The notes: generated from the letters alone by a model not told the origin. Shown: positions 22,384-40,272, counted from the first letter of the stretch. The stretch: DNA of 64,000 bases from an uncultured delta proteobacterium (GCA_963840855.1 CAWJBB010000039.1:60517-124516); one strand, 5' to 3'. Made by a program: numbers and translations.

Positions 22384-22607
22384 AGCATTGAAGCGTATTA
22401 GAAACTCTTGAAATGACGGCACAATATGGTGCGAAGAGAGAAACCGGGTAAGCCAGGGTGACACCCGGGAAAGGGTCAATTTGTTGTCACTCCGGCATTA
22501 TTTTGCCACCGCGTGCATTTTTGTCGCAAACGTGCGAAATCTTATCCGCCTATCCTCGAGGGCGCGGGAAATTGCGGCGCCCTTGGTTTTGTTATTTAAT
22601 GGCTAGA

Positions 22608-23753
22608 ATGACCGGCAATAATAGCGTGACTCCGTCCCAGAGTTTGATTTGTTCCGAGGACGACGCAGGGGCTTACCGTCTCGGCATCATCACCCTCGAC
22701 AATTCACGTGCGCTCAACGCCCTGGACCTGAGCATGCTACGAACGATGGAAGCCAAGCTCCTCGAATGGCGGCACCGGGGCGACATCGTCTGCATCGTCG
22801 TTCATGCAAACTCGGACAGAGCGTTCTGCGCCGGCGGCGATGTCAAAGCTCTGGTCTTAAGCATGAAAGAAAATCCGGGGATTCAAGTTGGGATCGATTA
22901 CTTCACGACGGAATACTTCGTTGATTATCTGATCCACGCCTACGACAAGCCGATACTTTGCTGGGCGGATGGCATAACGATGGGCGGCGGCATTGGCATC
23001 ATGAACGGCGCGAGCTCACGGGTTGTCACCGAACGAACAACAATGGCGATGCCGGAAAGCGCCATCGGCTTGTATCCAGACGTCGGCGGAACCTATTTTT
23101 TAAACCGCCTGCCGGACGGGCTGGGTCTGTATCTCGCCCTTACCTCGGCGCGCTTTGATGGCTATGACGCGGTCGCCATCGGCATGGCGGACCACTGGAT
23201 TCCATCGCTGCGGAAAGCCGAGGTTCTGGCGGGTCTCGCCGCGCTGGATTGGACCCACGACGGAGCCCTGAACAAGCAGATTCTGCGCGAATACGTGACG
23301 TCGTTCTCCGCAGCGAATCCTTCCGGCCGCTCCGATTTAATGACGCGCCTGGACGCCGTGCGAGCTTTGACATGCCATTCGAGCAGCGAAGCAATCGATG
23401 GCGTCTTTCGCGGCTGGACCGGCGATGACGAGTGGATGGAAAACGCCATGCGCGGCTACCTCGCCGCTTCGCCCACTTCCGTCAAGGCAATTTTCAAACA
23501 GATAACCCAGGGTAAGAGTTTGTCCAAGAAAGCGGCGTTCCTGCGCGAATGGGACATGTCGGCTAATTTTTGCGCGGCCTCGGATTTCCCCGAAGGCGTG
23601 CGCGCGCGGCTCATCGACAAGGATCAAAAGCCGCGCTGGAACCCCGCGACGCTGGCCGAAGTGCGCGACGGCGACATCGAACGGCTTTTCTCCAAACAAC
23701 ATGGCCAGCCGGATTTGCTCGCGCAAAAATTTTCGGAACACGGCTTGAGTTGA
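22608..23753 (+). CDS. Crotonase-family protein, 3-hydroxyisobutyryl-CoA hydrolase-like
   Basis: [50 protein letters not shown]; start uncertain. Confidence 0.88.
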
Positions 23754-23816
23754 AGACCTTGTTGTTCGATGATACGTGCCATGACAGCCGGGGGCAACCC
23801 GGATGTTGAGAGGCCA

Positions 23817-24791
23817 ATGATGGGTACCAGCCCACTGGAAATCGATCTATCGCAGATGCGCTACGACATCACGATGCCGCTCTTCGAAGGCCGAGTACCG
23901 ATGGACGGCGTTTCACTGAAGCCGGTAAAAGCATCGTCGATGATCAACAAGGAAGACCCCAAACTGAAGGCCGGCGACTTTGGCCTTTTGGATTTGAATC
24001 TGGGTTACTTTCTACCGGCCATCGAAGCGGGTTGGGAGATCGTCGGCCTGCCGGTTTTTTCCAAGCGCAAGCCCGTCTATCAACTCCTTTTCTGTAACTC
24101 CGCGTCCGCGATTCGCTCCGCCGCGGATCTGTCGGGCAAGAAGATCGGCTCGCGCACTTACCGCACGGCGCTCACTGTCTGGGCGCGCGGCTTGCTCAAG
24201 GAGCGCAATGGCGTGGACTTCTCCAAAGTCACGTGGGTGCTGCAAGCCAGGGAAGTGTTTCCGGTGCATGATCCATCGTTGGACATCGAGTACGTCGATG
24301 AATCGAAAAACATGGCGCAGCGGCTCATCGCCGGCGAACTGGACGCGCTCATTACGGATATTTCCGACACCAAGCTCTTCGAAGCTCTGGAGAACAACCC
24401 TAAAGTGCGCCGCCTTTTCGCCAATTATGTTGAAGACGATCAGGAGCTTTACAACGACACCGGCATCTTCACGCCGGTGCACATGATCGTCATGAGCCGC
24501 CGGCTTGATCGCCAACATCCCGAGTTAGCGGGCATGTTCTACACGGCGTTTGAGAAAGCCAAGCAGATCGCTTACGACGATATCCTCAGCGACCGCGGCG
24601 GTTTCTCCGTCGTTTACCTGCGCGAAAGAATGAAGGAGCAAATGGCGACCTGGGGCGACCCCTGGCAATACGGTATCAAAGCCAATAAAACAACGATGGA
24701 CGCGTTCATTAGATACAACGTCGAACAAGGCATGGTCCGCAGAGCGCCGTCCTACGAAGAAATCTTCGCCGCCGGCGTGCTGGACACTTAA
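23817..24791 (+). CDS. 4,5-dihydroxyphthalate decarboxylase-like protein (PBP2 fold)
   Basis: YDITMPLFEGRV, LPVFSKR, YRTALTVWARGLL, TGIFTPVH, GDPWQYGIKAN; adjacent to a phthalate-type Rieske oxygenase. Confidence 0.7.
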   Translation: MMGTSPLEIDLSQMRYDITMPLFEGRVPMDGVSLKPVKASSMINKEDPKLKAGDFGLLDLNLGYFLPAIEAGWEIVGLPVFSKRKPVYQLLFCNSASAIRSAADLSGKKIGSRTYRTALTVWARGLLKERNGVDFSKVTWVLQAREVFPVHDPSLDIEYVDESKNMAQRLIAGELDALITDISDTKLFEALENNPKVRRLFANYVEDDQELYNDTGIFTPVHMIVMSRRLDRQHPELAGMFYTAFEKAKQIAYDDILSDRGGFSVVYLRERMKEQMATWGDPWQYGIKANKTTMDAFIRYNVEQGMVRRAPSYEEIFAAGVLDT

Positions 24792-24807
24792 TTGTGAATT
24801 CCACGAA

Positions 24808-24879
24808 TTGAACGGCTTGAACGTTTTGAACAATTTGAACCCCTGAGGACTCTGAACCTTGAACTTTGAACCTTGAACG
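24808..24879. repeat. TTGAAC arrays, 9-bp period then 7-bp period (single orientation)
   Basis: TTGAACGGC TTGAACGTT TTGAACAAT TTGAACCCC ... CTGAACC TTGAACT TTGAACC TTGAACG. Confidence 0.85.
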
Positions 24880-24898
24880 GACCGCTAAGGAGCGACTG

Positions 24899-26182
24899 AT
24901 GCTATCTAAAGAAGACAACGAGTTGCTCACCCGAACCAATGCGGGTACGCCGGCGGGCGATCTAATGCGGCGCTACTGGATACCCGCGCTATTGTCAGAG
25001 GAGATTCCCGCGCCTGATTGTCCACCGGCTCGGGTGAAGCTTTTGGGCGAAGAACTCGTCGCTTTCCGAGACACTCAAGGCCGCATTGGCCTGATCGGCG
25101 AGCACTGTGCCCATCGCGGCACGTCGCTATTCTTCGGGCGCAACGAAGAGTGCGGCCTGCGCTGCATTTATCATGGTTGGAAATACGACGTTGAAGGCAA
25201 CGTCCTGGATACCCCCGCGGAACCGGGCGATAGCGACTTTAGAAAAAAAATGCGCCACACCGCCTATCCGACGCATGAAGCGAACGGTGTTATTTATGCT
25301 TACCTCGGCCCGCGCGAAAAGATGCCGCTCTTTCCTAACTACGAATGGATCCAGGTGCCGCTGGAATTTACTTATGTGACGAAATGCCTGCTGGAGTGCA
25401 ACTACCTTCAAGGGCTCGAAGGCGAATGCGATTCGTCCCATCTGTCTTTTCTCCACCGCGCTTTCACCAACGAGCGCAATCAAGCTATGTATAAGAGCGA
25501 TACTTCCCCCGTCTATGAAACCGAAGATGCCGACTTCGGAGTGCGGCTCATCGCCACGCGCAGTTCCGATAACCAACACTACGTCCGCTTTTCCGCCTTC
25601 GTGATGCCGGTGTACGGCTGCGTCCCCGCCGGCAGACCGACCAATGAGCTTGACGGCTATGAAATCCACACCTATGTCCCGGCCGATGACACACACTGCT
25701 GGCGCTATGACATTGGTTTTCGCCGCGACCGGGCCGTGCGCGACGATGAAGTGCACCGGCGCAAGCAGATCAACCCCGACTACTCGAAGATTCGCAACGC
25801 GCGTAACAACTATCTGCAGGACCGCCAGATGCAAAAGGCGGTTAATTTTACCGGCATCGAAGATTTTTTGAATCACGATGCCTGCGCCACGGAAAGCATG
25901 GGAGCGATTTTCGACCGCAGCAAGGAACATCTCGGGGTAAGCGACAAGGCCGTCATTGCGGTGCGGAAACGTTTGCTCAATTCGATCAAGGAGCTGCAAC
26001 AGGGGAACGAGCCGCCGCACCTCGTCCTCAAAGCGGAGCGGAACTGGTTCCCGCATATTGACTGCTTTGCCCATTTGGTGGCCAAGAACGTTTCGTGGCG
26101 GCAAAAGTTCGACTACCTGACGCCGGCAGCGCAGAAGGAAAACCCGGCGTCATTTGCGGCGCGGCAGAAAGCCGCGTCCTGA
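24899..26182 (+). CDS. Rieske non-heme iron oxygenase, phthalate 4,5-dioxygenase-like
   Basis: CAHRG...CIYHGW Rieske ligands; EGECDSSHLSFLH iron site; D...ESMG...EHLGVSD. Confidence 0.9.
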   Translation: MLSKEDNELLTRTNAGTPAGDLMRRYWIPALLSEEIPAPDCPPARVKLLGEELVAFRDTQGRIGLIGEHCAHRGTSLFFGRNEECGLRCIYHGWKYDVEGNVLDTPAEPGDSDFRKKMRHTAYPTHEANGVIYAYLGPREKMPLFPNYEWIQVPLEFTYVTKCLLECNYLQGLEGECDSSHLSFLHRAFTNERNQAMYKSDTSPVYETEDADFGVRLIATRSSDNQHYVRFSAFVMPVYGCVPAGRPTNELDGYEIHTYVPADDTHCWRYDIGFRRDRAVRDDEVHRRKQINPDYSKIRNARNNYLQDRQMQKAVNFTGIEDFLNHDACATESMGAIFDRSKEHLGVSDKAVIAVRKRLLNSIKELQQGNEPPHLVLKAERNWFPHIDCFAHLVAKNVSWRQKFDYLTPAAQKENPASFAARQKAAS

Positions 26183-26255
26183 GTCGCCGTGAACCTCCAG
26201 GGGCGTCGGGTCGGGGTCCTTGCAGCCCAAATCTAGCAGGACAGCTGGAGACACC

Positions 26256-27002
26256 ATGAAGAAGACAAAACGACCCGGCCCCGAGCGTCGCGCCGCCATC
26301 AAGCTTGTCGAGAAGGAACTCGGGATTGGCGCAAAAATTTTGGAATGGGAAATCGGCGATATCTGGGGGCATGTCGGCGTCCGTCTGCCCGACAGCCGAG
26401 GCATCGCCGTGCAATTGTTCCGCCGGGCTGAAGAAGGCAATAAAGATTGGCTGGTGCACTTTGATTATTCGCTCAAGAAGCTTTCTGGCGTCGGCACGAT
26501 TCCTCGTGAAGCCGTTATCTATACTGAAATTTTCAAGGCGCGCCCGGACGTCAATGCCGCCGTGCATTGCCACGCGTCCATGTGCGTCGCGCTGAGCATT
26601 GCTGACAAACCGGTCTCCTGCGTGCATGTGCAATCCAACCGCTTCGGCGGCGGCGTGCCGATCTATCCGAGGCCGATCTACATTCTGGATGAATTCGAAG
26701 GGGCGGACCTGGCTCGCACCCTTGGGAACGCCAACGGCATGATGATCAAAGGTCATGGAATTGTTACCGTCGGCAAGTCCATCGACGAGGCGTGCATAAA
26801 TGCGGTTTACATGGAGCGCACGGCGAAGATCATGGCTATGGCCCAGCTGTTCGGCTTCAGCGGCGTGCCGGACGAATTCTTCGGACAACTGACCAGCAGC
26901 AAGCAGAAGCTTCTTTCCCGGGGAACAAGGTTGTCCCACTCCGCCGAGTGGAACTACTACGCCGACAAAATCAAAAAAGGCGAGCGCTGGACGCGCGGGT
27001 GA
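26256..27002 (+). CDS. Class II aldolase/adducin family protein
   Basis: GHVGVR, IPRE..IY..IFKARPDV.AAVHCH, KGHGIV. Confidence 0.85.
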   Translation: MKKTKRPGPERRAAIKLVEKELGIGAKILEWEIGDIWGHVGVRLPDSRGIAVQLFRRAEEGNKDWLVHFDYSLKKLSGVGTIPREAVIYTEIFKARPDVNAAVHCHASMCVALSIADKPVSCVHVQSNRFGGGVPIYPRPIYILDEFEGADLARTLGNANGMMIKGHGIVTVGKSIDEACINAVYMERTAKIMAMAQLFGFSGVPDEFFGQLTSSKQKLLSRGTRLSHSAEWNYYADKIKKGERWTRG

Positions 27003-32409: not shown

Positions 32410-33552
32410 GTGCAACCCATACCCTTAAGGTTTTTCACCTTCGTAGTTCTAGCGTCGAGCTTTGCCACTGCCGGCGCCATCGGCCAAAACAAAGTAAACT
32501 CGTCCGTGCCGTCGCGGGAGCAAGTTATAGCCTGCTTGAGACAAGCCGGCGGCGCGGAGTGCCTCGACAATCTGTTTCGCGAAATGCTTAAGACCCATTC
32601 CACCGCCCAGGCGTTGGAGCTGATCCAGCGTTTTGAAAGAGAAGATCCAGAGTTGCGCCGCGACTGCCACCCGGTGGTCCATGCCATCGGCCGAGAGACC
32701 TATCGCTTGAAGGGCAATATTCATGATTCGTTTTCCGCCTGCGACCAGACCTGCCATTCCGGCTGCTATCACGGCTCAGTGGAACGGTTTCTGCGCGGTA
32801 ACGAGATTTACGCCCAAGCTAACAAGCATCCAACTCACGCCGAGCTCAAACAAAAGGCCGCCGCCGCTTGCGATCCGAAACTTCCAGGGCGGCTGCGTTT
32901 TCAATGCCTGCACGGTTTGGGGCACGCGCTGCTTTATTTCTCGCGTTATCAACTGGTCCCGTCTCTGGAAGCCTGCGACGCGCTTACCGAGGACTGGAGC
33001 CGCAGTTCATGCTATGGCGGCGTGTTCATGGAAAACGTTTTCAACGCCACGCCGGAAACCCGCGATCTCAGTCCAACAGACTACCACTATCCGTGCAACA
33101 ATTTGAGCGAAAAATACCGCGGCGAGTGCTACGTCATGCAAACATCGCGCATGGTCGAAATGGGGCTTTCCACCGAGGAGGTTTTCCACCAATGCACCAA
33201 AGCCGGCGTTCATAGCGCCCAATGTTCGTTGTCCGTGGGGCGTGATCTTTCCAACTATGTGCGCGTCGGCGAAACCACCGCCGCCGCGCGCAAGTGTGAG
33301 TTGGCCCAGGGGGACGATCGCCGAGCCTGCGTTCGCGGCGTTGTCTACGCGCTTATCGACAATACCTGGGATGGGCGCTACGCCTGGCCGTTCTGCGCCG
33401 CCCTTGCCCAAGAAAATGATCAAAACCGCTGTTTGCAAGAAAGCATTCAATACTTGAAGACCACGTTCGAAAAAACCGGCGACGAAATTGGCAAAGACTG
33501 TGGGCGACTCGTCAACATCTCGCGCCGCTGTGAAAACCTGGCGACGCAATAG
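32410..33552 (+). CDS. Exported Cys/His-rich helical repeat protein, function unknown
   Basis: GGAGG RBS, signal peptide, 20 Cys by my count; CHPVVHAIG, GCYHG, CLHGLGH, CYGGVFMEN. Confidence 0.8.
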   Translation: MQPIPLRFFTFVVLASSFATAGAIGQNKVNSSVPSREQVIACLRQAGGAECLDNLFREMLKTHSTAQALELIQRFEREDPELRRDCHPVVHAIGRETYRLKGNIHDSFSACDQTCHSGCYHGSVERFLRGNEIYAQANKHPTHAELKQKAAAACDPKLPGRLRFQCLHGLGHALLYFSRYQLVPSLEACDALTEDWSRSSCYGGVFMENVFNATPETRDLSPTDYHYPCNNLSEKYRGECYVMQTSRMVEMGLSTEEVFHQCTKAGVHSAQCSLSVGRDLSNYVRVGETTAAARKCELAQGDDRRACVRGVVYALIDNTWDGRYAWPFCAALAQENDQNRCLQESIQYLKTTFEKTGDEIGKDCGRLVNISRRCENLATQ

Positions 33553-33561
33553 ACACCGTCC

Positions 33562-33696
33562 GGTTTAAAGTTCAAGGTTCAAAGTTCAAAGTTTCCGATA
33601 CGAAGGAGTCCGTCTGTAAAACCGCGAGAGGCCGAATTGGGGCATCGCATCGTGCGAATCCGGAACCTTGAACTTTGAACCTTGAACTTTGAACGG
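33562..33696. repeat. GTTCAA/TTGAAC heptamer inverted-arm element
   Basis: GTTTAAAGTTCAAGGTTCAAAGTTCAAAGTTTCCGA ... TCCGGAACCTTGAACTTTGAACCTTGAACTTTGAACGG between convergent genes. Confidence 0.9.
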
Positions 33697-33699
33697 AAG

Positions 33700-34449
33700 T
33701 TAGAACATATAGCTGCCGCAGTTGATATTGTAGGACTGTCCAGTGATGAACGCCGCCGCGTCGCTGGCAAGAAACAGGATCGGTCCGGCGATGTCCTCGG
33801 GCTCGAGCACATGGGGCAACGGCGTCGAGCGCAGCCGCGCCATGATTTCTTCTTCGGTACGGTGTTGGCGGGGCATAGCGGTATTTGCCGAGCCTGGACA
33901 AATGGCATTGACGGTAATCCCATCCGGTCCCAGCTCGCGGGCCAGCGCCTTGACGAATCCCATCACCGCGGCCTTCGACGCGGCATAATGGGAGAATTGC
34001 CTCATACCGTAATGGCCGATGCCGGATGCGAGGCTGATAATCCGGCCGCTTTTTTGCGCGCGCATGGCCGGCACGAACTCCCGGCAACAGAGGAAGTTGC
34101 TGCCGACGTTGACGTCCATGGTGCGATCCCAATCCTGTTCGGACAGGTCAACCACCGACGCCTTGGGAAAATAAATGCCGGCAACGTTTACCAGGATGTC
34201 GGCGCGGCCAAAATGGCCGAACGTTTCCTTCGCCATGCGCTTGACGGAGGATTCACTGGCGACGTTGACTTCGACGGCGAGCCCTTGGGCGCCAAGTGCG
34301 TGTATTTCACCTGCCACGGACTGGGCTTTCTCGCCCTGCAAGTCGGCGACGACAACTTTCGCTCCTTCTCGACCCATGCCGAGGGCGACGGCCCGGCCGA
34401 TCCCTTGCGCCCCACCCGTGACAACCGCAACTTTGTCTTTGAGTCTCAT
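33700..34449 (-). CDS. Short-chain dehydrogenase/reductase (FabG-like)
   Basis: TGGAQGIG, LVNVAG, YAASK, VNAICPG. Confidence 0.9.
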   Translation of the reverse strand: MRLKDKVAVVTGGAQGIGRAVALGMGREGAKVVVADLQGEKAQSVAGEIHALGAQGLAVEVNVASESSVKRMAKETFGHFGRADILVNVAGIYFPKASVVDLSEQDWDRTMDVNVGSNFLCCREFVPAMRAQKSGRIISLASGIGHYGMRQFSHYAASKAAVMGFVKALARELGPDGITVNAICPGSANTAMPRQHRTEEEIMARLRSTPLPHVLEPEDIAGPILFLASDAAAFITGQSYNINCGSYMF

Positions 34450-35198
34450 GGCATCACCAGCCCGCCGTTCACATGAAGAGTTTGCCCGGTAATCGCCGCG
34501 GCTTCGGCCGTGGTGAGGAAATAATACATCTCGGCCAAATCCTCAGGCTGCCCGGTTCGGCCGAGCGGGATGGACGAATACCAACGCTGCTTGCGCGCCT
34601 CTGGAGTTTCTTTTTCCATTACCCGCGGCGTATCGGTGGGACCGGGCGCCACCGTGTTGGCTAGAATGCCGTCGGGCGCCAGCTCGAGAGCAAGCGATTT
34701 CGTAAAACTGATGATACCAGCCTTGGCGGCCGCATAAGGCGCGCGCAACGCCGAGCCGGTGACGCCATAGTTGGACGCTGTGTTCATGATGCGCCCGCTT
34801 TTTTGCCTTTGCATGACCGGCGCGACTTCGCGGCACATGAGAAAAGTGCCCTTCACATTAGTATCGATGACCTGCTTCCACTCGGCCCAGGTGAATTCTT
34901 CGATGCGCTTGGTGTAAAAGCTGCCGCCGGCGATATTGGCTAGTACATCGATGCGGCCGAAGCGCTGCGCGACGTCGGTGACGAGCGCCTTTACCTCACG
35001 CCCCTGGGTCACATCCACCGAGAGCGCCTCCGCCTTGCCGCCGCCGGATTTGATCTCCGCGCTGACTTGCTCTGCCGCGGCGTGATCGTAATCCGCGATG
35101 ACGACAATCATGCCGGCAACGGCCATGCGCCGCGCCACGGCGCCACCGATACCGCCGCCGCCTCCCGTGAGCAAAGCTACTTGGGCCGCTTGATTCAT
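34446..35198 (-). CDS. Short-chain dehydrogenase/reductase (FabG-like)
   Basis: TGGGGGIG, LANIAG, YAAAK, NTVAPG. Confidence 0.9.
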   Translation of the reverse strand: MNQAAQVALLTGGGGGIGGAVARRMAVAGMIVVIADYDHAAAEQVSAEIKSGGGKAEALSVDVTQGREVKALVTDVAQRFGRIDVLANIAGGSFYTKRIEEFTWAEWKQVIDTNVKGTFLMCREVAPVMQRQKSGRIMNTASNYGVTGSALRAPYAAAKAGIISFTKSLALELAPDGILANTVAPGPTDTPRVMEKETPEARKQRWYSSIPLGRTGQPEDLAEMYYFLTTAEAAAITGQTLHVNGGLVMP

Positions 35199-36979
35199 AC
35201 GCTTTCTCCATCGGCCGCCGTCGCATAGATCGCGCTGATGATTTTTTCATACCGTTCTTGCACGGCCTTGCGCTCGATTTTGATTTTCTCGAAGACGCTG
35301 ACGCTGCGCACCTCCGGCGGAAAATCGGACGGCATAATGCCAAACTTGCGGACCCGTTCGTACGCTTCCAGCGATCTATTGATCTCCTCCAGGCGCGACC
35401 GGATCAATGCCTCGATTGCACCATCGCTCAGGGCAGACTCGGCTTTCTTCAGCTCGGCGGCCATTAGCTTTTTATCAGGCACGATCAGCGCCGCGATAAA
35501 CGGCCGCTGGTCACCGAGCAAAATCGCTTGCCGGATAAAGCGGTCGTTTTCGAGCAGGAGCTCGATATGGGCGGGATAGATATTGGAGCCGTCGGAGCAG
35601 TTGAAAATATCTTTCTTGCGCCCGACGATAAAAAGGCAACCCTCCTCGTCGATCATGCCGCAATCTCCGGTATGGAACCATCCCTCGGCGTCGATTGCTT
35701 CCCGAGTCGCCTCGGGATTATTGAAATATCCGGGCGTCACGGTGGGTCCGCGCACCAGGAGCTCGCCGTCGGCGGCGATGCGCAACTCGATGTTGGCAAA
35801 GGGCCGCCCCAGGCTTCCCGGCTTGTTATCGCCGACGCCGCTGAGCGTCACGCCGCCGCATTCGGTGATGCCGTAGGAGCCCAACAGGGGAATTCGCATG
35901 AGCTCGAAGAGTCGTATGATCCGCGGCGGCATCGCCGCGCCGCCATACGCGAGATATTTGATCCTGCCGCCCAGCGCCTTTCTTGTGGCCTCGCCGAGCT
36001 CGGCGCGCAGTTCTTCGAACCGCGCTGTTTCAAAGCCATTCAATTCCGCGCCCGTGTTCTTGCGGCGATCCAACTCCTCCAGCCGCTCACATTGCTCCCG
36101 GCAGCCTTTTTCGTCAAAAATCTTTTCCAAAAATTTCTCAATGACCCGAGGAACCATGGCCAGAGCCGTGGGCGCAAGCGCGTCGATGGTCCGCATATTC
36201 ACTGCATTTTCCGTGGCTTCGATCACGGCCGTAGCGCGCCCGGTGACAACGCTTTTCAAAAAGCCAAAACGGCCGAACAGATGATTAAGGTTTAGAACGA
36301 TGACTGTCAATTCGTCGGGATCGCTCGAAGATATCGGACGGCCATTGGTGATATTCGCAAGCAGATTATTATGGGTGCGCATGACACCCTTGGGCTCACC
36401 GGTGGAACCGGAGGTGTACATGATCGTCGCGAGATCGTCGGGATAAACCGATTCCAGTATCGCTCCGAAGCGCCCTTCGTCGTCCCGCGCGCCGCGCGAC
36501 AGAAACTCGCCGAACGAGAGGGCGCAGGGCAAGCCGGCGCCGCTGCCATCGAGAACGATCAAATAATCGAGCGCAGGCAATTGGCCCTTGAGATTGAGTA
36601 ACCGCCCCACCGCCGTCTCATTTTGCACGAAGGCCGCGCGGCAGCTGGAATGACCGAGAATCATGCGCAACATCCTGTCGGATAGGCCGGGGGAAACGAT
36701 GACGTTGGGGAAACCGCCCCCTAGGGTCGCAAGGTCGGCGCACAGCCACTCAAGGCTATTCTCGCCGATGATCGCCACGCGGTCGCCTTTGTTCAAGCCG
36801 AGAGCGTAAAGCGCAAAAATGGCGGCGCGCACTTTGGTGCCAAAATCGTGCCATGAGATTTCGTCAAATTGCTCGCCGCGTTGCACCTTGATGAAGCTCC
36901 TCTCGCCAAGTTCCGCAACGCGATTAAAGAAGATCGCCGCTATATGACGGTCCTGTGATACTTGCCGCGCCGTATTCAT
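35195..36979 (-). CDS. AMP-forming acyl-CoA ligase, long-chain type
   Basis: YTSGSTGEPKG, SYGITE, GWFHTGD, GRKKD. Confidence 0.9.
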   Translation of the reverse strand: MNTARQVSQDRHIAAIFFNRVAELGERSFIKVQRGEQFDEISWHDFGTKVRAAIFALYALGLNKGDRVAIIGENSLEWLCADLATLGGGFPNVIVSPGLSDRMLRMILGHSSCRAAFVQNETAVGRLLNLKGQLPALDYLIVLDGSGAGLPCALSFGEFLSRGARDDEGRFGAILESVYPDDLATIMYTSGSTGEPKGVMRTHNNLLANITNGRPISSSDPDELTVIVLNLNHLFGRFGFLKSVVTGRATAVIEATENAVNMRTIDALAPTALAMVPRVIEKFLEKIFDEKGCREQCERLEELDRRKNTGAELNGFETARFEELRAELGEATRKALGGRIKYLAYGGAAMPPRIIRLFELMRIPLLGSYGITECGGVTLSGVGDNKPGSLGRPFANIELRIAADGELLVRGPTVTPGYFNNPEATREAIDAEGWFHTGDCGMIDEEGCLFIVGRKKDIFNCSDGSNIYPAHIELLLENDRFIRQAILLGDQRPFIAALIVPDKKLMAAELKKAESALSDGAIEALIRSRLEEINRSLEAYERVRKFGIMPSDFPPEVRSVSVFEKIKIERKAVQERYEKIISAIYATAADGESV

Positions 36980-38352
36980 TGTCCCAACTGTGCAAACAGC
37001 GCTGGCGCATACTTTGGACGGCCTGCTTTCTCGATTCGTCTGAGTCCTTTGATTTCCTCTCTATGGGCGTAGGCGTGAAGCAGGGCTTCAGCTGTATCAT
37101 CCAAATGTCCCTGTAAGTAGCGGCGCGCGGGTACGGCCAGGCGCAGTAGCTCTACGCCCCGCTCCTTTTGGCTGGGCGCCAGAGGCGGACCCTTTGTCAG
37201 ACGAACCCCTGAGGTTTCATAGATGAAAGCCGCCAGCGCCTCCGCCGCAAAGTTTTCCTTGGGAACTTGCGTCAAGAACCGCGCAACGTCGATAAACACG
37301 CCGTGGCCTCCAGCGGGATGGAGCACCGGAATCGTGTCTTTCAGTCGCCGCCATAAGTAGTGAACCTGTTCCACGCGGCTTGCCGCATAGGCATCGCCCG
37401 TAAGCAATTCGTCCAATGCAATGCTCAGTGCACAGATAACGGCGCTGCCGGCTTGCGCGCCGTCAAGAAAGCTCTGGGCGTAGGCCTTCTGATAAGCAGC
37501 TTCGTCGCGCGCGCCGATGAACCCCCCCGCGGCCACCGAGAAATCCTTGAGCGCGCTCATCGTGCAGCCGTCGGCCAGCGCACAGGTTTCACTGATGATC
37601 TCCGCCACGCTGTGGTTTTGATAGCCGGGCTCGCGCCGCTTGATCAAATAACTGTTTTCCAGAATCCGGCAGGCATCGAGAAACAGCGGCACGCGGTTGG
37701 CGCCGGCGGCGGCTTTTACCGCTTTTAGATTACCGAGGGACACTGGATGGCCGCCGCAGCTGTTGACGCAGAGTTCGACGTAAACGCACGCGACTTTGTC
37801 TTCATGCTCTTTGAACGCCGCCGTCAGTTTGGTCAGGTCGATGTCGCCTTTGAATAGGTGTTCGGCGGTGAGATCGTGGGCTCCGTCGTTGATAACATCC
37901 AGCACTTTTCCGCCATTGGCCTCAATATGATAGCGTGTCGAGGGAAAAAGCATATTGCCGGGCACGACGCAGCCCAACTGGACATGGAGCTTCGTCCACA
38001 GCCGTTCCGCCGCTCTTCCCTGCGCCAGCGGAAGCATGTAGGGAAAGCCAAAAACTTCCCGGAATTTGTCCGTGAGCGAGCGGAAGGCGCCGCTGCCTTC
38101 CGCGGCCATTTCCATGCCCGACTCCAGAGAACCCGCGCCCAACAGCGTGGCCACTTGTCGGGTGCTGAAGGCGCTAACGCCGCTATCGGTCTTGAGATCG
38201 ACGTAAACCAGCTCTTGGGGGATCAGTTCAGTGTTGTAACAGGCGGCCTGGAGCGCGGCTTGACGCTCTTGTCGGGATGTTTGGCGCAGCGGCCGCACCG
38301 CCGCCATCTCATAAGGGACGGAAAAAACGACTTCAGAGAAATTTTCTTTCAT
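36976..38352 (-). CDS. Divergent tryptophanase/tyrosine phenol-lyase family PLP enzyme
   Basis: DLKTDSG, QGRAAE, FKGDIDL, GGHPVS, DACR, MSALKD (PLP lysine), GGHGVFID, LRLAVP. Confidence 0.88.
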   Translation of the reverse strand: MKENFSEVVFSVPYEMAAVRPLRQTSRQERQAALQAACYNTELIPQELVYVDLKTDSGVSAFSTRQVATLLGAGSLESGMEMAAEGSGAFRSLTDKFREVFGFPYMLPLAQGRAAERLWTKLHVQLGCVVPGNMLFPSTRYHIEANGGKVLDVINDGAHDLTAEHLFKGDIDLTKLTAAFKEHEDKVACVYVELCVNSCGGHPVSLGNLKAVKAAAGANRVPLFLDACRILENSYLIKRREPGYQNHSVAEIISETCALADGCTMSALKDFSVAAGGFIGARDEAAYQKAYAQSFLDGAQAGSAVICALSIALDELLTGDAYAASRVEQVHYLWRRLKDTIPVLHPAGGHGVFIDVARFLTQVPKENFAAEALAAFIYETSGVRLTKGPPLAPSQKERGVELLRLAVPARRYLQGHLDDTAEALLHAYAHREEIKGLRRIEKAGRPKYAPALFAQLGQ

Positions 38353-38454
38353 CGATGGGTCTTCTCGCTCGCCTACAAGCGGGATTATTCCCAAGATTAG
38401 CGCCTAAGGAGTAATCCTCTACAGTCGTGGCCAATGGGATGGTACGTTATCAGA

Positions 38455-38527
38455 GTTCGATCCGTTCAAATAGTTCAAATCGTTCCAAACGTTTTGAACG
38501 GCTCGAACTACTTGAACGTTTTGAACC
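38455..38527. repeat. GTTCAA/TTGAAC inverted-arm element, 9-bp period
   Basis: GTTCGATCC GTTCAAATA GTTCAAATC GTTCCAAAC GTT TTGAACGGC TCGAACTAC TTGAACGTT TTGAACC. Confidence 0.85.
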
Positions 38528-38542
38528 TACTTTTGCCGACTC

Positions 38543-39361
38543 TTAGATCTCCTCAGGCGCCCCGAGGCCCTGATGCTCTTGCTTTCTGTCGCGGTCCACC
38601 AGCGCAGCTTTCGCGCGGTTCACCATCTTGCGCTCGGTGGCGAATCTGAGATTTCGCAGCGCTTCGTCAATTGGGAACCAGCGCGCTTCATCGACTTCAT
38701 GGTCATGATCGCGCACGTCGCCGCGCAGATAGCGGACCAGGTAAAAATGAACCCGTTTGTGTATCTTGACCTCTTCTTGGCCGGCTCGTCTTTCACGGTA
38801 GGAATAGCGGATCTCACCGAGCTTTCTCGCCACCCGTCCCTCCAGACCGGTCTCTTCGCGCACCTCGCGCAACGCAGCCTGGTCGGCGCTTTCACCGGCT
38901 TCGACATGCCCCTTCGGCAATCCCCAGCGGCGCCGCACATGAATCAGCGCCACCTCGACGCCGCCGCCTTGCCTGCGATATACCACTCCCCCCGCGGAAA
39001 CCTCGTGCGTCTCGCGCACGCTTCCGTCCGGCCGCGGCGCTGCCGTCGCAGTTTGCTCCCCCAACCAGTTCAGATAGGGCTCGCTACCGGCGATGATCGG
39101 CAGCGCAATGATTTCCGGAACCGTGTAGCTGTGCAGCTCGCGCACGCGCTTTTCCAGCGCAGGGACAAGAGTTTTTCTCGTCTTGATCACGAGCAGTTCT
39201 TCGGCGCTCTGCTCCACTTTGCCTTCCCAGCGATAGACGGACTGGACGGACGGGAGCCGGTTTACGCAGGCTGCGAGCCGCTCTTCCACGAGCGCCCGGG
39301 CTAAACGATCCCCTTCGGCGGCCGAACTGACCGTCACAAAAATTACCAGAAAGTCTCGCAC
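38543..39361 (-). CDS. cutA: CutA (PII-like) fused to a NUDIX hydrolase
   Basis: [11 protein letters not shown]...SVYRWEG...HSYTVPEII...YLNW, then SAGGVV...[27 protein letters not shown]; start GTG 39361 or TTG 39370. Confidence 0.85.
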
Positions 39362-39410
39362 TGGAGCCAATATTACAACCGGCTTTCCCAGTCAGTCAAT
39401 CAGTAAACCC

Positions 39411-39511
39411 AGGCGGGAGGCGGAAGGCGTGAGCCGCGAGCCGAACAATTTTCTATTCCGTACCGATACGCCTGCTATTTTCTCACGCCTCGCGCCTCTA
39501 GCCTCATGCCT
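39411..39511. repeat. Heptamer-period inverted-arm element (AGGCGNN / NNCGCCT)
   Basis: AGGCGGG AGGCGGA AGGCGTG AGCCGCG AGCCG ... CTCACGC CTCGCGC CTCTAGC CTCATGC CT. Confidence 0.75.
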
Positions 39512-39561
39512 ACTTCTATTGCCTGTTGCTTAACGCCGCACGGCTCAGCTAGCCTGAGACC

Positions 39562-40272
39562 GTGAAGACCAAAGATGCCATCCGAAAAGCAATCTGGGCA
39601 TTGCTTCAGAGAAATAAAGTGGCGCGTTTCCCCGGCGCCGAGGGACGGATTCCCAATTTCATCGGCGCCGAAGCCTGCGCGCGCCGCTTGGCCGAAGCCG
39701 CATGGTGGCAAAAATCCAAGGTTATCAAGATCAATCCGGATTCGCCGCAGCGGGCGATCCGCCAGCGAGCGCTGGCCGAAGGCAAAATTATCTACATGCC
39801 GGTGCCCCGGCTGCGCGCAGATGAGCCCTTTATTGAATTAGACCCAAAAAAGCTCAGCTGCTCGCCCCACGCGGCATCATCGATCAAAGGCGCCGCGCAA
39901 TACGGACGCCCCGTCTCGCTCGATGAAGTGAAAAAGATCGATCTCATCATCTGCGGTTCCGTAGCCGTGAACCGAAAAGGCGCCCGGGTCGGCAAAGGCG
40001 GCGGCTATTCCGATTTGGAATTTGCCCTTCTGACTGAAGAAAAAAAGATCGGCCCGAGCACCCCTATCGTCACCTCCGTCCACCCGCTGCAAATTGTTGA
40101 AGACGAGATTCCCATGACCGAGCACGACATCCCGCTTACCGCCATCGTCACGCCGGCGGAAATTATCGATATCAGGTCCCCCTTCAAGCGGCCCAAAGGA
40201 ATCTCCTGGCAGATGCTGCCCGATGAAAAGATCGATGCCATCCCGGCGCTTCAAAGCCGGCGACCAGGGTAA
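39562..40272 (+). CDS. 5-formyltetrahydrofolate cyclo-ligase family, MTHFSD-like subtype
   Basis: GRIPNFIGAE, KINPDSPQ, VPRLR, RVGKGGGYSDLE, VHPLQ, HDIP. Confidence 0.85.
   Translation: MKTKDAIRKAIWALLQRNKVARFPGAEGRIPNFIGAEACARRLAEAAWWQKSKVIKINPDSPQRAIRQRALAEGKIIYMPVPRLRADEPFIELDPKKLSCSPHAASSIKGAAQYGRPVSLDEVKKIDLIICGSVAVNRKGARVGKGGGYSDLEFALLTEEKKIGPSTPIVTSVHPLQIVEDEIPMTEHDIPLTAIVTPAEIIDIRSPFKRPKGISWQMLPDEKIDAIPALQSRRPG

Follow-up and report, generated by a model that had tools for sequence, protein, structure and literature searches.

A 64,000-nucleotide stretch of a contig from an uncultured delta proteobacterium (GCA_963840855.1 CAWJBB010000039.1:60517-124516; hereafter the window, with positions counted from its first nucleotide) carries at 33700-38352 four head-to-tail open reading frames (ORFs) on the minus strand. 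They encode a pyridoxal 5'-phosphate (PLP)-dependent lyase of the tyrosine phenol-lyase (TPL)/tryptophanase (TnaA) family, an acyl-coenzyme A (acyl-CoA) ligase, and two short-chain dehydrogenases/reductases, SDR1 and SDR2 (Table 1). The initial annotation had described four genes joined by 4-bp ATGA overlaps, and this layout holds, as all three junctions read ATGA on the coding strand (a 4-base overlap of stop and start codons) and Pfam families were assigned to the products. The longest possible start of the lyase gene is a TTG at 38394, 14 codons upstream of the ATG.

Table 1. Genes of the operon, its leader, and the adjacent upstream gene in the window
Feature	Position	Strand	Evidence
Remodelled TPL/TnaA-family PLP lyase, 458 aa from the ATG start	36976..38352	-	PF01212 at 1.5e-41
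ANL-superfamily acyl-CoA ligase, 594 aa, long-chain/FadD11-like, with AMP-binding_C_3	35195..36979	-	PF00501 + PF23562
Classical SDR 1, 250 aa	34446..35198	-	adh_short_C2 at 9e-62
Classical SDR 2, 249 aa	33700..34449	-	adh_short_C2 at 3e-62
Intergenic operon leader with repeated GTTCAA / TTGAAC words, candidate operator/promoter	38395..38542	-	sequence and DNA alignment
CutA1-NUDIX fusion gene	38543..39370	-	PF03091 + PF00293

The lyase matches PF01212 as its sole Pfam family at E ≤ 0.001, with 143.1 bits against a gathering score of 27. It also passes the tryptophanase 'subfamily' model NF009709 (362.6 versus a cut-off of 285), a broad model on which the ThiF-fused and ligase-fused proteins described below score 220-330. 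The equivalog models of the two classical enzymes are not reached. On the TPL model TIGR02618 the window lyase scores 342.2 bits versus 720.7, while the control protein P0135 scores 733, and on the TnaA models TIGR02617 and NF053783 it attains 254.4 versus 825.8 and 306.5 versus 750, respectively. In a PDB sequence search, TPL 1c7g was matched at 3e-85, and the AlphaFold2 (AF2) model of the lyase, built from a 58-row alignment with a pLDDT of 92.4, resembles TPL 6dvx with a Foldseek TM score of 0.90 at ~35% identity.

Residues were mapped through a HMMER alignment to Citrobacter freundii TPL (1tpl) and two MAFFT alignments that included P0135 and the near-TnaA protein P0171. The residues kept in the window lyase comprise T55-D56-S57-G58, Q111-G-R113-A-A-E116, F136, N197, D226, R229, K269 (in SALK269D), and R404; among them, K269, D226, R113, F136, N197, R229, and R404 are the equivalents of TPL K257, D214, R100, F123, Asn185, Arg217, and R404. 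The Tyr71 column holds A84, with GDEAY71AGS reading GMEMAAEGS behind an insertion of 7-8 residues. In addition, YNTF36 has become YNTE42, the FTT motif reads FPS (Thr124 to Pro137), KK256/257 reads LK (Lys256 to Leu268), and the C-terminal LRFFTARF is replaced by PKYAPALF. Two segments are shortened between conserved anchors: the TYGGMAG loop (288-295) by ~5 residues (43 versus 48) and the MER381G...SAGR segment by ~7 (19 versus 26), with K387 being aligned with Arg381 in the HMMER alignment only. Thr124, Arg381, and Phe448 are the residues that confer specificity on TPL. The initial annotation had proposed that the PLP and carboxylate machinery is kept and that the residues of side-chain catalysis are lost. 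The HMMER and MAFFT alignments reproduce every residue statement in both parts, those in the second being the changes at Tyr71, Phe36, the Arg381 segment, the loop, and the C-terminus; comparison of the alignment and structure model with TPL recovers no catalytic Tyr and places a conserved Lys, in a shortened segment, at the Arg381 position.

The changes extend well beyond a single protein. Across 119 family members with at least 64% identity to the window lyase, E42 is present in 118, P137 in all 119, L268 in 111, and K387 in 118. The Tyr71 column is occupied by Pro in 61 members, Ala in 43, Ser in 6, and Val, Glu, or Leu in 2 each, with no Tyr in these 116; the other three carry further residues, none of them commoner than 2. 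The Phe448 column is shared between Phe (62) and Tyr (56). K269, D226, R229, N197, F136, and R404 are each found in 119 of 119 members, and R113 in 117. Since the residue changes are constant over the 119 members, they represent features of the family rather than chance or sequencing noise. Judged by these residues and by the superposition of its confident model on TPL, the window lyase should still be catalytically competent, and its pocket is more polar, with invariant Glu42 and Lys387. The roles of Arg381 and Tyr71 in TPL are treated in PMC3870968, from which, together with general knowledge of the enzyme, Tyr71 mutants appear to lose C-C cleavage while still eliminating good leaving groups. 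The same survey reports TPL-like domains that are embedded in polyketide synthases (PKSs) and lack Tyr71 and Arg381 (PMC3870968).

To place the lyase within its family, a HMMER pass was made over 1.84 billion representatives, which yielded 2414 matches at E ≤ 0.001. At 50%-identity clustering, the window's family amounts to one full-length cluster (P0016) plus fragments, and the next matches are double-domain proteins of ~900 residues and scattered relatives at 33-45% identity. At least 120 clusters share at least 64% identity with the window lyase. Trees were built by 'quick' searches with SH-aLRT support only. In a 67-row tree (IQ-TREE, LG+C20), a split with a support of 98 has on one side 27 remodelled rows, made up of 9 proteins of the family, 8 close relatives with a single domain, 7 fusions to ThiF, and 3 fusions to a ligase, and on the other 40 canonical rows (TPL-like, TnaA-like, double-domain, and other multi-domain proteins). 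A 42-row tree that includes a PKS-embedded domain, P0284, shows the split again with a support of 99 and 21 rows on either side, P0284 falling on the remodelled side as the neighbour of the ThiF-fused proteins (support 93); the great length of the P0284 branch (2.15) makes its precise position unsure. Over residues 471-930, P0284 matches PDB entry 9cen at 1e-67, the thiocysteine lyase (SH) domain of the guangnanmycin A biosynthetic pathway according to its Foldseek title. It carries the remodelled signature, with TDSW, F-P-T, and SLAKDF (where another residue stands for Lys256), the two deletions, and a missing Tyr71. The window lyase itself matches 9cen at 1e-25 in the PDB search, with a Foldseek TM score of 0.75. 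For a survey of loop lengths, the distances between conserved anchors were measured in residues for the domains of the 150 best representatives, and 128 of 146 domains span both anchor pairs. In 42 of these 128 domains, a short loop goes together with a short Arg381 segment; of the 42, 1 has Tyr71, 6 retain Lys256, and 41 possess the PLP lysine. The same features in so many domains indicate that the remodelling is the signature of a large and diverse branch and not a one-protein quirk. A search of the ESM Atlas returned only generically named tryptophanase/TPL clusters.

Several observations concern other members of the superfamily. The ~900-residue proteins, found in MAGs (metagenome-assembled genomes) of Nitrospira and cyanobacteria (loci L007-L011, e.g., L008:8546-11383; P0121-P0144), consist of two Beta_elim_lyase halves. 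The N-terminal half has Tyr71 in 11 of 11 cases and the PLP lysine in 5, and the C-terminal half has the PLP lysine in 11 of 11, Arg381 in 7, and Tyr71 in 2. In TPL, Tyr71 is contributed by the adjacent subunit; given this and the complementary halves, the double-domain proteins look like a fused pseudo-heterodimer with divided labour. The neighbours of the L008 gene are unrelated to the window operon. On the canonical side of the tree, lyase domains are also fused to nitroreductase (P0191), GmrSD_N (P0179), hemerythrin (P0167), EF-hand (P0215), and guanylate-kinase (P0148) domains, and P0283 combines a lyase with cytochrome-oxidase domains.

A genome scan gave 11 loci, of which five (L001-L005) contain members of the lyase family at 64-96% identity, all in MAGs of Candidatus Binatia or 'Deltaproteobacteria'. 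The ligase gene comes next after the lyase gene in all five, although in L001 only the first 217 ligase residues are present before the contig ends. SDR1 and then SDR2 follow in the same order in all four loci that reach that far (in L004, SDR2 is cut by the contig end), and start/stop overlaps are kept at most junctions. The flanking housekeeping genes are likewise common to the family loci. The products of the remaining loci (L006-L011, all Nitrospira) are double-domain proteins of the canonical side; no ligase accompanies them, and these loci have no bearing on the synteny of this family. Relatives at ≥ 64% identity also include clusters named Acidoferrales and Udaeobacter. Just downstream of the operon in L005 lies a gene for an amino-acid-type substrate-binding protein (a weak match); none of the genes that accompany the operon throughout the family loci encodes a transporter or regulator.

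The association of lyase and ligase is also found within single polypeptides. Two proteins, P0139 (1036 residues) and P0180 (1026 residues), and a truncated third, P0173 (790 residues), combine a lyase with AMP-binding and AMP-binding_C_3 domains in one chain, and the order of the domains in all three is that of the first two genes of the window operon. Their lyase parts share 33-39% identity with the window lyase, show the same deletions, and lack the Tyr, and the ligase part of P0139 aligns with the window ligase at 31.5% identity over 587 columns (E 2e-87). These three fusions to the same kind of ligase reinforce the link to CoA activation that the initial annotation had claimed. A second class of fusion carries a ThiF/E1-like adenylyltransferase N-terminal to a remodelled lyase. 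It is represented by seven proteins (P0158, P0181, P0182, P0189, P0195, P0233, and P0255) that form one clade with a support of 99. The best model for the ThiF part is NF006077, a 'hypothetical protein' family, and a cluster look-up of 10 proteins returned a sole name, 'beta-eliminating lyase-related protein', for P0181 from an Anaerolineae MAG.

The window ligase is recognized by PF00501 (8e-60, 203 bits) and PF23562 (6.5e-14, 52.8 bits) and contains YTSGSTGEPKG, GSYGITE, TGD, and GRKKD, which we take to be the core motifs of the ANL superfamily. No ligase equivalog among FadD11, FadD3, MenE, and the others compared is reached, the best being FadD11 with 216.8 versus 950. The best PDB matches lie at only ~1e-33 and comprise a chain named oxidoreductase, carboxylic acid reductases, and luciferases. 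A trimmed complex prediction of ligase residues 1-575 with lyase residues 34-458 gave a score of 0.00, which was weighed neither for nor against a complex. Both SDRs exceed 185 bits on adh_short and share TGGxxGIG and YAAxK with the Ser/Tyr/Lys residues intact; at ~39% identity to each other, they score 225.7 (SDR1) and 225.2 (SDR2) on the FabG subfamily model NF009466 (cut-off 222), and SDR2 in addition scores 229.7 on NF005559 versus 215. The PDB matches of SDR1 are FabG and the (3R)-hydroxyacyl-CoA dehydrogenase 2et6, to which SDR2 adds phenylethanol dehydrogenase and BbsD. SDR1 displays S..YAAAK and VVIAD, and SDR2 displays S..YAASK and VVVAD. In SDRs, an Asp at the end of strand beta-2 points to nicotinamide adenine dinucleotide, NAD(H), as the cofactor; because this strand ends in Asp in both proteins, both appear to prefer NAD. 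A 264-residue ORF on the opposite strand (33682-34476, +) covers all of SDR2 and exceeds it in length, and its translation is of low complexity and rich in Arg and Gly. SDR2 has a family match, which identifies it, not the overlapping ORF, as the real gene.

Taken together, the window lyase very probably represents a distinct, ligase-coupled subfamily that makes neither phenol nor indole, because the general-acid Tyr and the aromatic pocket have been lost. As to what it does instead, a plausible though tentative general mechanism is the alpha,beta-elimination of a good leaving group, most likely from an S-substituted L-cysteine, in partnership with the ligase. The analysis shows the fold, the residue pattern, the place in the remodelled branch, the gene linkage, and the fusions; the kind of reaction, the sequence of steps, the cofactor preferred by the SDRs, and the substrate are inferred from them. 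An L-amino acid would be bound as usual, with Lys269, Asp226, and Arg113 serving PLP and Arg404, Asn197, and Arg229 the carboxylate. The lyase would then expel a good leaving group from C-beta; with S-substituted L-cysteine as the likeliest substrate, the C-S bond would be cut to give a thiol, pyruvate, and ammonium. This step would take place in obligate partnership with the neighbouring acyl-CoA ligase, whose acyl chain may be either the S-substituent freed by the lyase or a CoA-tethered group that bears the cysteine. The latter case would parallel the SH domains of PKSs, which cut thioester-tethered cysteine adducts. Finally, the two SDRs, being similar to FabG and (3R)-hydroxyacyl-CoA dehydrogenase, may interconvert 3-hydroxy and 3-oxo groups on the acyl-CoA.

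The comparison with SH domains has an experimental side. According to PMC8479088, SH domains cleave in vitro the C-S bond of thioester-tethered L-cysteine-polyketide adducts and, preferentially, L-thiocysteine-polyketide adducts, in a PLP-dependent reaction that yields pyruvate and ammonium. The proposal in the initial annotation of a different substrate, such as an S/O-substituted amino acid, fits the kinship with these C-S-cleaving domains (PMC8479088). Since the nearest studied relatives cut C-S bonds, the operon of this uncultured soil bacterium probably marks an undescribed sulfur-handling pathway.

Several points weigh against a ligase-coupled C-S lyase and its wider context. At 90% identity, the three ligase fusions each form a cluster of a single protein. 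A search for longer forms of the lyase found 15 proteins (13 double-domain proteins, 1 cytochrome-oxidase fusion, and 1 PKS) and no further ligase fusion, and a search with the lyase part of P0139 found 11 proteins with a ligase only on P0139 itself. An indel at an overlapping ATGA junction could yield artificial fusions; even so, such fusions would document the adjacency of lyase and ligase genes at 33-39% identity, far outside the lineage of the window. The synteny is real but comes from loci of one lineage, Candidatus Binatia, and the flanks are shared as well, so lineage inertia could explain it. Function transfer from the SH domains is weak, as the window lyase is far nearer to TPL than to 9cen; the SH-like row sits on its very long branch in quick trees with SH-aLRT support only. 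The operon contains no DUF-type Michael-addition domain, and nothing in it makes a cysteine adduct. Moreover, a simple C-S lyase scheme gives no account of the two SDRs, whose apparent preference for NAD follows from a general rule about strand beta-2.

A bolder form of the ligase-coupled reading, which must be regarded as improbable, sees the operon as a free-standing, CoA-based counterpart of a PKS SH domain, that is, a cysteine-dependent sulfur-insertion module acting on a ligase-activated acyl group. In one scheme, the lyase would expel a thiocarboxylate from an S-acyl-cysteine aldimine; in another, the two NAD-linked SDRs would help to put a thiol in place of the 3-hydroxy/3-oxo group of an acyl-CoA, with a cysteine adduct as intermediate. 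The sister proteins fused to ThiF would likewise make thiocarboxylates on adenylated C-termini. If true, sulfur would be incorporated by a so far unrecognised route that does not depend on persulfides and is widespread among uncultured bacteria of soil.

Among the alternatives, a purely catabolic role in which the lyase acts first is rather unlikely, yet it accounts for several features of the operon. A beta-substituted amino acid, such as S-(carboxyalkyl)cysteine or O-acyl-serine, would be split to release a leaving group that is or carries a carboxylic acid. The ligase would then esterify the freed hydroxylated acid with CoA, the NAD-dependent SDRs would oxidise the (R)- or (S)-hydroxy group, and beta-oxidation would complete the breakdown. 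The lyase-then-ligase order in genes and fusions is consistent with such a sequence, and so are the resemblance of the SDRs to (3R)-hydroxyacyl-CoA dehydrogenase/FabG and the Asp that ends beta-2 in both. The position of the operon among housekeeping genes of ordinary G+C, rather than in an island, and the weakly matched substrate-binding protein beside it in L005 also agree with it. On the other hand, the data name no natural substrate of this kind, the operon has no conserved transporter or regulator, and the ThiF fusions of the sister lyases would be left unexplained.

The ThiF fusions are better accommodated if the lyase is a cysteine-dependent thioacid synthase, although we consider this quite unlikely overall. 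Here, the thiol of a PLP-bound cysteine would capture the ligase-activated acyl group, and beta-elimination would expel R-COS-, leaving an aminoacrylate that decays to pyruvate and ammonium. R-COS- is an excellent leaving group and would need no general-acid Tyr. In a simpler variant, the lyase would be a cysteine desulfhydrase whose HS- attacks the adenylate; the ThiF-fused cousins would act in the same manner on adenylated protein C-termini. Remodelled lyases are fused to two unrelated adenylate-forming classes, ANL (three representatives) and ThiF/E1-like (seven), which argues for a function requiring an activated acyl group beside a PLP site. The loss of Tyr71 fits a leaving group that does not require protonation, and tryptophanase is able to desulfhydrate cysteine. 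Nevertheless, no precedent was found in the literature searched, the two SDRs are left without a role, the ThiF part best matches the 'hypothetical protein' family NF006077, and there is no sulfur-carrier gene within the operon of the window.

An alpha-oxoamine-synthase-like condensation, in which an amino acid and the acyl-CoA would be coupled by the PLP enzyme and the SDRs would reduce the aminoketone in the style of sphingoid-base or capnine formation, is very improbable. The combination of a PLP enzyme, an acyl-CoA ligase of the long-chain type, and ketoreductase-like SDRs does mirror the logic of the serine palmitoyltransferase pathway. However, the PLP enzyme matches PF01212 only and not PF00155 (Aminotran_1_2), the characterised relatives on both sides of the tree are all lyases, and both SDRs look NAD- rather than NADPH-preferring; the condensation that the initial annotation had offered as an alternative thus found no support. 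Finally, an ordinary TPL or tryptophanase standing beside unrelated genes, as sources that label the relatives 'tyrosine phenol-lyase' or 'tryptophanase' would have it, is hardly credible despite the passed NF009709 model and the TPL-like fold, since its scores fall 2- to 3-fold short of the equivalog cut-offs, the family as a whole lacks the catalytic Tyr and the specificity residues, the lyase lies across a split with 98-99 support from the canonical enzymes, and its linkage and fusion to ligases are recurrent.

The operon block has a G+C content of 0.58-0.60, which is not unusual within the window, and the housekeeping-like genes around it do not form an island with it. Its same-strand upstream neighbour is the CutA1-NUDIX fusion gene, followed by genes for 5-formyltetrahydrofolate cyclo-ligase, HisG, and a carboxylase subunit; the other flank contains a 380-residue ORF without a family, DUF3108, an M48 peptidase, and RmlD. 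This ORF (32410-33552, +) is convergent with SDR2, and neither Pfam nor NCBIfam gives a match for it; in L002 it shows 80% conservation, and it was not found at the equivalent place in L003 or L005. The NUDIX half of the CutA1-NUDIX protein is similar to the MutT1 N-domain. In six of six loci (the window and L001-L005), the lyase gene is immediately preceded on the same strand by a NUDIX gene, with a gap of 15 bases in L005 and of 60 in L003, whose NUDIX gene lacks the CutA half, and the gene is possibly linked to the operon. Further away, at 22458-27002 on the plus strand, same-strand genes encode an ECH_2 enoyl-CoA hydratase/3-hydroxyisobutyryl-CoA-hydrolase-like protein, a 340-residue ORF without a family, a LigXa-like Rieske oxygenase, and a class II aldolase, with NMT1/THI5-like binding proteins after them; this run is possibly an aromatic or ether catabolic cluster.

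The leader between the CutA1-NUDIX and lyase genes contains, at ~38447-38528, GTTCAA-type words in four direct copies and, after them, TTGAAC words in inverted orientation, with a near-palindrome of ~20 bases. DNA alignment shows this repeat block to be common to L002 and partly to L001. It is a candidate operator, and the operon itself includes no regulator gene. An Rfam scan of 33000-40000 at E ≤ 1 matched no riboswitch family and gave just two chance matches to microRNA-type hairpins, both at 38447-38528 and far under the gathering scores. Counts from a promoter and terminator scan were not above those of shuffled controls.

No literature was found on this lyase family, on its pairing or fusion with acyl-CoA ligases, or on the ThiF-lyase fusions, in a search that most subscription journals lay outside. 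The lyase stands for a functional subfamily that is as yet uncharacterised and that brings a new logic of partnership into a textbook PLP family. More broadly, a large remodelled branch of that family has been defined, whose members are recurrently joined to adenylate-forming enzymes and whose sole studied members install sulfur into natural products. Public labels such as 'tyrosine phenol-lyase' and 'tryptophanase' would lead to wrong predictions of phenol or indole production in soil metagenomes. If the coupling represents a transfer of sulfur from cysteine to an acyl group, it would reveal a new way of moving sulfur without cysteine desulfurases and could provide new biocatalysts for thiols or thioacids. 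Even under a conservative reading, the operon is a compact four-enzyme pathway in a phylum without a cultured member.

Among known enzymes, TPL of Citrobacter freundii and Erwinia herbicola (1tpl, 2tpl, 1c7g, 6dvx) shares its fold-type I PLP fold with the window lyase over the whole length. In the window lyase, however, Tyr71, Phe36, Thr124, Lys256, and Phe449 are replaced, residues are missing from the 288-295 loop as well as from the Arg381 segment, and its gene is tied to a ligase and SDRs instead of standing alone. TnaA of Escherichia coli and Proteus vulgaris (2oqx, 1ax4) likewise has the fold and PLP machinery of the window lyase, which lacks the Tyr equivalent and also the TnaA-specific Asp at the Thr124 column. 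The ThiF-lyase fusions resemble the window lyase in their remodelled lyase type, their side of the tree, and an adenylate-forming partner. That partner is an N-terminal E1-like adenylyltransferase rather than a downstream ANL ligase, and in these fusions the K256 column holds Thr, Ser, or Ala and the F36 column is not Glu. The SH domains of leinamycin-family PKSs (GnmT-SH 9cen, LnmJ-SH, and WsmR-SH) lie on the same side of the tree and share with the window lyase the absence of Tyr71, the F-P-T/S motif, the replacement of Lys256, and both deletions; in either case, a partner supplies a thioester or an activated acyl group. In contrast to the SH domains, the window lyase is a free-standing protein of 458 residues outside any PKS module and without a DUF partner, it has invariant Glu42 and Lys387, and its partner is a CoA ligase instead of a carrier protein.

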